From: a virus
Taxonomy: Duplodnaviria > Heunggongvirae > Uroviricota > Caudoviricetes
DNA: 49,391 bases
Virus record (IMG/VR): IMGVR_UViG_2939521961_000014
Strand: one strand, 5' to 3'
Shown: positions 39,001-42,000 of the stretch, piece by piece
How the letters are laid out: the number at the start of each line of letters is the position of its first letter
Position numbering within the stretch: position 1 is the first letter of the stretch
Program-made: the position numbers

Positions 39001-42000
39001 GCTGCAAGACAGCGATCGAGAAGATAAGCACCTCGACGCGTCATGCGCCAAAGCCACTTAAAGGAGACCATCATGGTAACCATTGTCTGGAAAGAATCCA
39101 AAGGTACGGCAAAAAGCCGCTACAAAGCTCGCAGAGCAGAACTTATTGCCGAGCGACGCAGTAATGAAGCACTGGCGCGAAAAATTGCGCTAAAGCTCTC
39201 TGGTTGCGTCAGAGCAGACAAAGCAGCATCACTAGGAAGCCTTTGCTGCAAGAAGAAAGAAGAAGTTGTTCGAAAAAATAGAAGTATTTATTACAAGGAT
39301 TCAAACCCATTAGGAAACAAAATACATGCAGTCCAAAAAATAAAATTGTACAGTAAACTACCGTACGGTGCTTATTGAGTATGCTTATGGTGAAAAAGAC
39401 TATTTATGTTAATCCTGACCGCGGACAAAACAGAAAAGTATCTGATAGAGGTCTTACATCTCGAGACAGGAGGAGAATAGCGAGATGGGAAAAGAGGATA
39501 GCATATGCATTAAAAAACGGTGTAACACCTGGATTTAATGCTATAGATGACGGTCCTGAATATAAGATTAATGAAGACCCAATGGACAAAGTTGACAAAG
39601 CATTAGCAACACCATTTCCTCGCGATGTCGAAAAAATTGAAGATGAAAAATATGAGGATGTAATGCACAGAGTTGTTAATCACGCTCACCAACGAAATCC
39701 AAATAAAAAATGGTCATAGCCCACTTCGGTGGGTTTTTTATTGGCTGAACTAACCTAATTTATTACAGCAAGCCACGCAGTGAAATGGGTGTGACTTGTG
39801 TTGGTCGCCAGAAAATGAAATTAGGCAGCAAACCACTTATTTGAGGTGAGATATGACAAAATCATGGAGCGTACCTTTTCCTGAATCAGAAACTGAACAT
39901 GATGGAATGCCTGTTTTCTGGAGATTCCAGGCGACAGTTGAAGAAGATGGGATAAAAATATTCGCACTTCAATATATAGCTTTTCATCAGACAGAGCATT
40001 ATGCATGGTTGGTTCCTGCGCATTGGATTGTTAATTTTAAACCAGCACCAAATCAGTGGTTACAGGAATGGAAACAAAGGAGAAATAGATATGCAATTAA
40101 GAAAGTAGCAAAAAATGCAGAAAGATCTTTTGCATTCCCAACGAAGAAACTTGCTATTGAAAGTTTATTGCGCCGGAAGAAATACCATTTAATGAGAATA
40201 AAACAAGATTTGGCTGTTGTATCAACTCTTGTTGATGGGATGAAAAATATTGATACATCAACACCAGATATTGAATATAACTTTGGACACAACCAAGAAA
40301 CAGAAAATTGGGTATTTTATTAGTACGAGTAAGCACTGTGTATTCATTCCAACGAGTGAATACACGGAGCAATGTCGCTCGTAACTAAACAGGAGCCGAC
40401 TTGTTCTGATTATTGGAAATCTTCTTTGCCCTCTAATGTGAGGGCGATTTTTTTCTGTGAGGATATGAACAGATGTCAAACATCAAAAAATACATCATTG
40501 ATTACGACTGGAAAACATCAATAGAAATTGAAATCGACCATGACTTAATGACAGAGGAAAAACTTCACCAGATTAATAATTTCTGGTCAGACTCTGAATA
40601 CCGACTCAATAAACACGGCTCTGTATTAAATGCTGTATTAATCATGCTGGCGCAACATGCTCTGCTTATAGCAATTTCAAGCGACTTAAATGCATATGGT
40701 GTTGTGTGTGAGTTCGACTGGAATGATGGAAATGGTCAGGAAGGATGGCCTCCAATGGATGGTAGCGAAGGAATAAGAATTACCGATATCGATACATCAG
40801 GAATATTTGATCCAGATGATATGACTATCAAAGCCGCCTGAGCGCGGCGTTACCGCATACCAATTACGCTTCACTCGAGGCGTTTTTCGTTATGTATAAA
40901 TAAGGAGCACACCATGCAATATGCCATTGCAGGGTGGCCTGTTGCTGGCTGCCCTTCCGAATCTTTACTTGAACGAATTACCCGTAAATTACGTGACGGA
41001 TGGAAACGCCTTATCGACATACTTAATCAGCCAGGAGTCCCGAAAAATGGATCAAACAATTATGGCTATCCAGACTAAATTCACTATCGCCACTTTTATT
41101 GGCGATGAAAAGATGTTTCGTGAGGCCGTCGACGCTTATAAAAAATGGATATTAATACAGAAACTGAGATCAAGCAAAAGCATTCACTACCCCCCTTTCC
41201 TGTTTTCCTAATCAGCCTGGCATTTCGCGGGCGATATTTTCACAGCCATTTTCAGGAGTTCAGCCATGAACGCTTATTACATTCAGGATCGTCTTGAGGC
41301 TCAGAGCTGGGCGCGTCACTACCAGCAGATCGCCCGTGAAGAGAAAGAGGCAGAACTGGCAGACGACATGGAAAAAGGCCTGCCCCAGCACCTGTTTGAA
41401 TCGCTATGCATCGATCATTTGCAACGCCACGGGGCCAGCAAAAAAGCCATTACCCGTGCGTTTGATGACGATGTTGAGTTTCAGGAACGCATGGCAGAAC
41501 ACATCCGGTACATGGTTGAAACCATTGCTCACCACCAGGTTGATATTGATTCAGAGGTATAAAACGGATGAGTACAGCACTCGCAACGCTGGCTGGGAAG
41601 CTGGCTGAACGTGTCGGCATGGATTCTGTCGACCCACAGGAACTGATCACCACTCTTCGCCAGACGGCATTTAAAGGTGATGCCAGCGATGCGCAGTTCA
41701 TCGCATTGCTGATCGTCGCCAACCAGTACGGCCTTAATCCGTGGACGAAAGAAATTTACGCCTTCCCTGATAAGCAGAACGGCATCGTTCCGGTGGTGGG
41801 CGTTGATGGCTGGTCCCGCATCATCAACGAAAACCAGCAGTTTGATGGCATGGACTTTGAGCAGGACAATGAATCCTGCACATGCCGGATTTACCGCAAG
41901 GACCGTAATCATCCGATCTGCGTTACCGAGTGGATGGATGAATGCCGCCGCGAACCATTCAAAACCCGCGAAGGCAGAGAAATCACGGGGCCGTGGCAGT

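Follow-up and report, generated by a model that had tools for sequence, protein, structure and literature searches.

In this report, we examined the 49,391-nucleotide (nt) viral record IMGVR_UViG_2939521961_000014 of IMG/VR (the whole of which is hereafter called the window), which is read here in the leftward (pL) direction of a lambdoid phage. An earlier note had described, between N and ea10, an insulated, AT-rich moron encoding a protein of 156 amino acids (aa), orf156, and had regarded it as a plausible novel phage-defence or host-manipulation determinant. We found that orf156, an open reading frame (ORF) called in the window at 39853-40323 on the + strand with an ATG start, is a genuine protein-coding cargo cassette of the leftward early (pL) operon, and that its slot is precisely the one filled by orf28-ral in lambda and lambda imm21. 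We hold this anatomical part of the overall reading with high confidence. By analogy with lambda, the gene is most likely turned on early in lytic growth and not in the dormant prophage. That its product is an N-dependent early binding protein with a role in counter-defence or host takeover is a proposal that we find about as easy to doubt as to accept. As a sequence feature, orf156 is ordinary: the hypothetical gene and the mosaic slot that holds it are both known.

The borders of the cassette are sharp. In alignments with lambda, lambda imm21, HK544, 933W, PA28 and a Shiga-toxin (Stx) phage of type Stx1, the exchange of slot cargo begins exactly at the ATG and ends about 10 nt beyond the stop codon (about 40332). 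Divergence begins within a few bases of the ATG, and homology returns some 10 nt after the orf156 stop; thus, the swapped unit is essentially the ORF alone. Relative to lambda imm21, this region differs at two places, in that a nun module replaces the end of N and orf156 replaces orf28-ral. The comparison with lambda and phage 21 across N-ea10 that had been suggested earlier hence delimited the insert and identified it as a replacement of orf28-ral. The cassette lies between an N-distal leader and an ea10-proximal trailer and is co-oriented with pL. From about 39791, the leader is common to phages with orf156 (933W, PA28), with orf28-ral (HK544) and with an 83-aa ORF (Stx1 phage AP005153). Because of the nun insertion, it is now a non-coding remnant of the 3' end of N21. 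In other phages, different N genes stop at different points within this same conserved stretch. The ribosome-binding site (RBS) GAGGTGA is read at 39843-39849, 3 nt 5' of the orf156 ATG.

On the other side of the cassette, the 140-nt trailer up to the ea10 start is almost invariant among lambda, HK544, 933W, PA28 and the Stx1 phage, while the genes on either side of it differ; alignment columns 40333-40425 are identical in six phages, including the lambda ral-ea10 interval. The trailer holds a perfect 9-bp inverted repeat, in which GTGTATTCA (40338-40346) pairs with TGAATACAC (40357-40365), nested in a 17-nt pair that is 82% complementary. As RNA, it folds into three hairpins ending in a terminator (-49.9 kcal/mol, z -5.67). 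This terminator presumably corresponds to the tL2a position upstream of ea10. The trailer may be nothing more than a recombination linker, or it may act in termination, in processing or as a 3'-derived small RNA (sRNA). It matches no Rfam family, and its identification with a known sRNA was rejected on that ground and because the late PR' region is where both the Pas sRNAs and the prophage sRNAs of Tree et al. (2014) are located.

The variability of the slot is already known, and our survey is in line with it. Loci were fetched from IMG/VR with an exact 44-nt trailer pattern, the leader was sought within 3 kb upstream, and loci found earlier were included; the sample is biased by the exact-match requirement, and 88 listed loci have both landmarks. 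Among these 88, the slot cargo runs from 217 to 1226 nt in 34 ORF architectures and includes at least 12 unrelated protein families, among them Ral, orf156, a 212-aa protein, a protein with two transmembrane segments (2-TM), the 83-aa ORF and a 107-aa protein. Cassettes can be stacked (up to about 1.2 kb), and one surveyed locus holds both Ral and orf156. Their presence together in the slot of one phage indicates that the two are not simple functional alleles. In PA28, as a separate observation, the gene 3' of the trailer (3962-4273) is not ea10 but encodes a P22 gp17-like "superinfection exclusion" protein, and the 107-aa slot-cargo family is related to it. In the work of Silas et al. (bioRxiv 10.1101/2023.04.06.535777, Supplementary File 2), the "Ral" accessory region is ranked second of the list, and orf184 (AFM76385.1), which that study assigns to the accessory region of ral, is shown to be the trigger of the gop-beta-cII abortive system. 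The 107-aa family that we met between leader and trailer is orf184. Given this occurrence and the co-location of orf184 with ral in that study, orf156 very probably lies inside the published region; the latter, very probably including the orf156 slot, is hypervariable and enriched in counter-defence genes and defence triggers. The earlier description of N-to-ea10 as a variable cargo site is therefore upheld by the alignments, the 88-locus survey and the published ranking.

The anatomy of the operon also bears on expression. orf156 lies downstream of pL, a nutL-like site and N, with terminators in between, and a simple consensus scan found no sigma-70-like site on the + strand of 39742-39852. 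This placement leads us to expect that orf156, like lambda ral, is expressed in an N-dependent, delayed-early manner. Transcripts would begin at pL and extend past nutL and N; RNA polymerase modified by N would then read through the nun terminator and the later ones, only once N has acted, and the protein would be made early after infection or induction and not in the repressed prophage. The region contains 8 terminator-like sites, versus 2.5 +/- 1.5 expected in shuffled sequences, and on the + strand they follow nearly every gene (38757, 39718, 40426, 40866 and 41215). Such a serial-terminator layout of the pL operon makes sense only with N antitermination. Taken by themselves, the serial terminators span 38757-41232 on the + strand, standing after cI, nun, orf156 and ea10, with one more at 41215. 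Promoter-like sites are rarer than expected (3 versus 6.2 in shuffles). A weak one with 9 of 12 matches, at 40342-40314 on the - strand and antisense into the 3' end of orf156, is probably a chance occurrence.

A moron, in the sense of Juhala and Hendrix, is an additional gene that is expressed from the prophage and brings along a promoter and a terminator of its own. Every sequence element listed in the earlier note (the 156-aa ORF, its RBS, the two terminators, the 9-bp inverted repeat and the AT-richness) was found, but the picture of an insulated moron with its own promoter that had been drawn from them is not supported. There is no promoter-like site in the consensus scan of the leader, which is the former 3' end of N21, and in 933W orf156 follows N directly, with a 58-nt gap and no terminator between. 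In the sequence scan, the two bracketing sites are terminator-like stems (39718-39735 and 40426-40447) with a T-run behind each. The upstream one belongs to the nun module, which 933W does not have, and the downstream one is ancestral, for the terminator at 40426-40454 is part of the trailer, which lambda and phages with other cargo also have; the inserted unit thus brings no terminator of its own.

Composition is less clear-cut. At 35.2% G+C, versus 50.3% for the whole window, orf156 ranks within the lowest 5% of 471-nt windows. Its neighbours nun (37.5%) and ea10 (38.2%, with 34.6% in its first half) are also low, however, and the 5' part of N (46.6%) is the sole clearly richer neighbour of the tract. 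The contrast with flanking N and ea10 that had been noted earlier therefore stands with respect to the window and the 5' part of N, and is small with respect to ea10 and to nun. Because nun and ea10 are also AT-rich and terminators follow nearly every gene, neither AT-richness nor terminator bracketing is specific to orf156.

Nor is the gene novel, as had been supposed. The exact protein is in GenBank as L0079 of 933W (100% identity), and the same protein occurs in H-19B and phi24B (vb_24B_11c), in BP-4795, Stx2 phage 86 and Min27, and in many Stx1a phages. Its exact sequence is on at least 1000 contigs, and its DNA is present at >=80% coverage in 522 of 5426 complete Escherichia coli genomes, with the ORF intact in most carriers and the annotation always "hypothetical protein". 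The protein matches phrog_1636 over its full length (E 2.7e-112, residues 1-156 of 156); orf156 is the founding member of this family, whose function is unknown in PHROG. A literature search on L0079, NP_049479, vb_24B_11c and the PHROG numbers returned nothing relevant.

Sequence searches with the protein support the statement, made earlier, that no motif or family is recognizable. The best Pfam match of the single protein (E 0.12) is far under the gathering score, NCBIfam gave nothing, the PADLOC defence models gave one chance-level match (E 0.018, 12 bits), and the best match among PDB sequences had E 0.13. The Ral family, PF11058, is not matched by orf156 in Pfam, and the cargo is unrelated past the ATG in the lambda imm21 alignment. 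In these searches no characterised homologue emerged, including a Ral or SieB orthologue, the finding that the earlier note had named beforehand as speaking against its proposal. The protein also has no membrane segments, in agreement with the absence of hydrophobic stretches remarked on before.

The family itself is well populated. There are 33 close homologues of 156-163 aa, at 55-85% identity and with 40 invariant columns, all in prophages of Enterobacterales (Escherichia, Cronobacter, Pectobacterium, Brenneria, Rosenbergiella and Symbiopectobacterium). When 1.84 billion representatives were searched exhaustively with a profile, 87 proteins scored E <= 0.001. The distant relatives are mostly 130-155 aa long, covering profile positions of about 20-140, and the family reaches marine Gammaproteobacteria. 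All 70 aligned members match phrog_1636 and 60 of the 70 also match phrog_13631; the distant relatives fall in phrog_13631 and phrog_25384, both of unknown function in PHROG. With the 70-member alignment, Pfam returned three families, each matched by one member at E 0.004 or worse and none credible, and a profile search of PDB sequences gave a best E of 0.57. Every match in a second profile search, made for named relatives, was "hypothetical". Domain fusions were considered as a functional clue and discarded, since the two multi-stretch matches among the 87 proteins are low-complexity artefacts; one Cys-rich N-terminal extension among the relatives is uninformative.

The predicted structure is more telling. 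From the 70-sequence alignment, AlphaFold gives a model with a mean predicted local distance difference test score (pLDDT) of 95.7 and a predicted template-modelling score (pTM) of 0.82; from 20 close homologues the pLDDT is 60. The model consists of a three-stranded beta-sheet (residues 19-30, 33-46 and 50-55), short helices (56-61 and 66-74), a strand (83-86), a 33-residue helix (98-130) and an ordered C-terminal tail that packs back. A search of BFVD found uncharacterised phage proteins only, and these structural relatives are in phages of many unrelated hosts, some of these phages presumably being virulent (N4-like, Vi1-like). The orf156 family is phage-specific, and its confidently predicted fold is without a solved relative. 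The remote homology and structure search proposed earlier has in this way delivered a confident model and relatives, though no characterised match. The resemblance of a strand-helix junction (R-F-A-F-x-T-K-E-x-A) to AP2 and Tn916-integrase arm-type domains was followed up and dropped, as the profile-profile probability is below 1% and not significant.

Conservation in the family is limited to a core of strongly basic character and some structural residues. The segment 75-120 has a net charge of +12 (mean +9.7 across the 70 members, range +5 to +14) between mildly acidic flanks, and the only near-invariant positions are G33, T47, K87, A101 and the aromatics at 23, 41, 52 and 155. None of the conserved residues is of catalytic type. 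This combination favours a binding protein over an enzyme.

The genomic positions of relatives are consistent with an early gene. In Cronobacter, the relative lies after N and before cIII, and the early-left genes of Pectobacterium and Brenneria end with a relative, ahead of xis-int. Distant relatives in Marinobacterium and in another prophage share an early-left operon, located 5' of int, with a gene for an orphan C5 DNA methylase. At these two methylase-linked loci (3374-5305 and 7692-8576, in two gammaproteobacterial prophages), one operon also has an RdgC-like gene and the other an HNH gene. The relative in a Salmonella phage is the first gene of an operon that also encodes a DNA-binding protein, a MarR-type regulator and a sliding clamp; that in a Vibrio phage is near RecE and a replication initiator; and that in a Klebsiella phage is among unannotated small genes. 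Six of the seven contexts examined are early, replication-recombination or pre-integrase regions, the seventh being among structural genes, and no defence island surrounds the relatives in any of them. The notion of a phage-defence determinant, when read as one expressed in the lysogen, is not supported by these contexts.

We propose that orf156 may act by binding and not by catalysis, and that its partner would most probably be nucleic acid or a host or prophage protein that handles nucleic acid; the conserved basic core of orf156 would contact this partner. Its role could be that of a lytic-cycle counter-defence or host-takeover factor, like other slot cargo. This role, considered alone, we advance tentatively, with somewhat less than even confidence. 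It is possible, but in our view doubtful, that orf156 and its family are phage counter-defence proteins or defence triggers of a new class, whose fold is absent among solved structures and which sequester nucleic acid or a nucleic-acid-handling immune protein. Several considerations weigh against our main reading. No experiment or homology ties the family to any function, and the 200 accessory genes in the screen of Silas et al. include neither orf156 nor its family. The basic segment could serve just as well as a protein-protein interface or as a helix packed in the interior. Adjacency to ral and to methylase genes is guilt by association, and the same operons hold recombination, regulatory and cell-division genes. 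One distant metagenomic relative, among structural genes and on the opposite strand, does not fit a uniform early-left position. Finally, the sigma-70 scan is a plain consensus test that leaves room for a weak or non-canonical promoter in the leader.

Alternatively, orf156 could be an autonomous, prophage-expressed moron that protects the lysogen by superinfection exclusion or defence, in the manner of SieB or of the adjacent Nun. The exclusion-type cargo that the slot holds elsewhere (the 2-TM family), the adjoining nun, the AT-richness, the terminator 3' of the gene and the many prophage carriers among complete E. coli genomes would all suit this view. Nevertheless, we consider it improbable. 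The leader is former N coding sequence with no promoter-like site, the nun terminator would stop read-through of lysogenic nun transcripts, and 933W has neither the upstream terminator nor a spacer that could house a promoter. Further, the PADLOC match is at chance level, structural relatives occur in phages of many unrelated hosts, and in most contexts examined the relatives are in early, replication-recombination or pre-integrase regions.

A more serious competitor, although still an unlikely one, is a phage-internal early factor that binds DNA or RNA and modulates phage transcription, recombination, replication or the lysis-lysogeny decision without being aimed at host immunity. The conserved basic core would suit such a factor, and the company of N, cIII, kil, gam and bet, the regulator and clamp operon of the Salmonella phage, the RecE and replication-initiator neighbourhood of the Vibrio phage, and the position immediately 5' of xis-int in Pectobacterium and Brenneria all point the same way. 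Against it, orf156 is dispensable, being freely exchanged in similar phages for unrelated cargo (ral) or for nothing comparable, which is typical of an accessory gene and not of a core regulator. Pfam searches with the single protein and with the 70-member alignment detected no helix-turn-helix or other known DNA-binding family, and the AP2/Tn916-integrase arm-type comparison was not significant. That orf156 is a selfish or decaying passenger without current function, kept by linkage to recombination-prone borders, seems to us very improbable. The leader and trailer, nearly identical between distant phages, could move any cargo regardless of benefit; yet homologues at 55-85% identity in at least six genera retain the length and 40 invariant residues, the family extends to marine Gammaproteobacteria, the co-variation in the alignment suffices for the pLDDT 95.7 model, and most carriers have an intact ORF.

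Table 1. Coordinates of the features in and around the orf156 slot, given as positions in the window
Feature	Position	Strand	Remarks
Repressor cI, then terminator	38108-38758		
nutL-like site upstream of N	38923-38962	+	boxA-like GCTCTTTAA, then boxB hairpin TCTCAAC-N6-GTTGAGA
N antiterminator, imm21 type	39073-39378	+	phrog_271, E 1e-31
nun (orf114 of the earlier note)	39381-39719	+	HK022 Nun transcription-termination/exclusion factor; phrog_5632, E 5e-71
Intrinsic terminator of the nun module ("upstream insulator")	39718-39741	+	Stem AGCCCACTTCGGTGGGTT and T-run
Conserved leader with RBS GAGGTGA	39751-39852	+	Remnant of the N21 3' coding end
orf156, cargo cassette	39853-40323	+	Identical to 933W L0079 and phi24B vb_24B_11c; phrog_1636
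Conserved trailer	40333-40472	+	9-bp-stem hairpin, second hairpin, terminator 40426-40454, ea10 RBS
ea10 (DUF2528), conserved right-hand neighbour of the slot	40473-40841	+	PF10800, E 2.6e-46

The features of the surrounding early region are listed in Table 1. The boxA/boxB site 5' of N is nutL-like, according to the known lambdoid layout of these elements; its boxB is a perfect 7-bp inverted repeat (38943-38949 / 38956-38962). The stretch 39057-39278 is nearly identical to the N gene of lambda imm21, and the alignment diverges from about 39279, where a 472-bp module (39279-39750) replaces the end of N and brings in nun and its terminator. The nun product is 99.1% identical to HK022 Nun (X16093, AF069308) over 112 aa. 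In our comparisons the module is absent from lambda imm21 and from 933W; it is present in Stx1a phages and PA28 at 93.8% identity. An imm21-type N with its C-terminus swapped by the nun module means that one phage encodes the antiterminator N plus the N-antagonist Nun. After ea10, the gene order is cIII, kil, gam, bet and exo, and the Rfam element Lambda_thermo, the cIII thermoregulator, is found at the cIII start (40901-40959, 88.5 bits).

The carriers of orf156 include reference Shiga-toxin phages and roughly one-tenth of complete E. coli genomes, and its slot is among the most variable accessory regions known in enterobacterial phages, having already yielded an anti-restriction protein and an abortive-infection trigger. 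With no Pfam model, no solved structural relative and a very confidently predicted fold, orf156 is a well-defined candidate for counter-defence and defence-trigger screens and for structural work. Any effect on host range would make it relevant to the spread of stx genes. If it does belong to a new class of counter-defence protein or defence trigger, it would help to decide which strains are open to infection and conversion by Shiga-toxin phages, given carriers such as 933W, H-19B, phi24B and BP-4795.

Placed beside known systems, orf156 does not differ from 933W L0079, its H-19B counterpart, phi24B vb_24B_11c or PHROG 1636, 13631 and 25384; membership in this set says nothing on mechanism, because the entries are all labelled "hypothetical protein" or "unknown function". 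AP2 and integrase arm-type DNA-binding domains combine a three-stranded sheet with a helix, and they give no significant profile match to orf156. Lambda or P22 SieB and HK022 Nun share its neighbourhood near N, and nun is directly upstream here, but orf156 is similar to neither of them and lacks both membrane segments and an arginine-rich RNA-binding motif of the N/Nun type. Like a moron, orf156 is AT-rich, has an intrinsic terminator 3', and is flanked by genes that adjoin or are spaced differently in relatives; unlike one, it has no detected promoter, its terminator is part of a shared trailer, and it replaces other cargo instead of being a pure insertion. The orf184 of Silas et al. occupies the same leader-trailer slot, but is an unrelated, acidic 107-aa protein, and an identity of orf156 with it was thereby ruled out. 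Lambda Ral, which alleviates type I restriction, has no sequence similarity to orf156 and is 66 aa long, compared with 156 aa. Nonetheless, orf28-ral and orf156 share the same slot, with its leader and RBS and with its trailer hairpin and terminator before ea10, and both are small, soluble, non-essential cargo on the same strand of the same pL operon.

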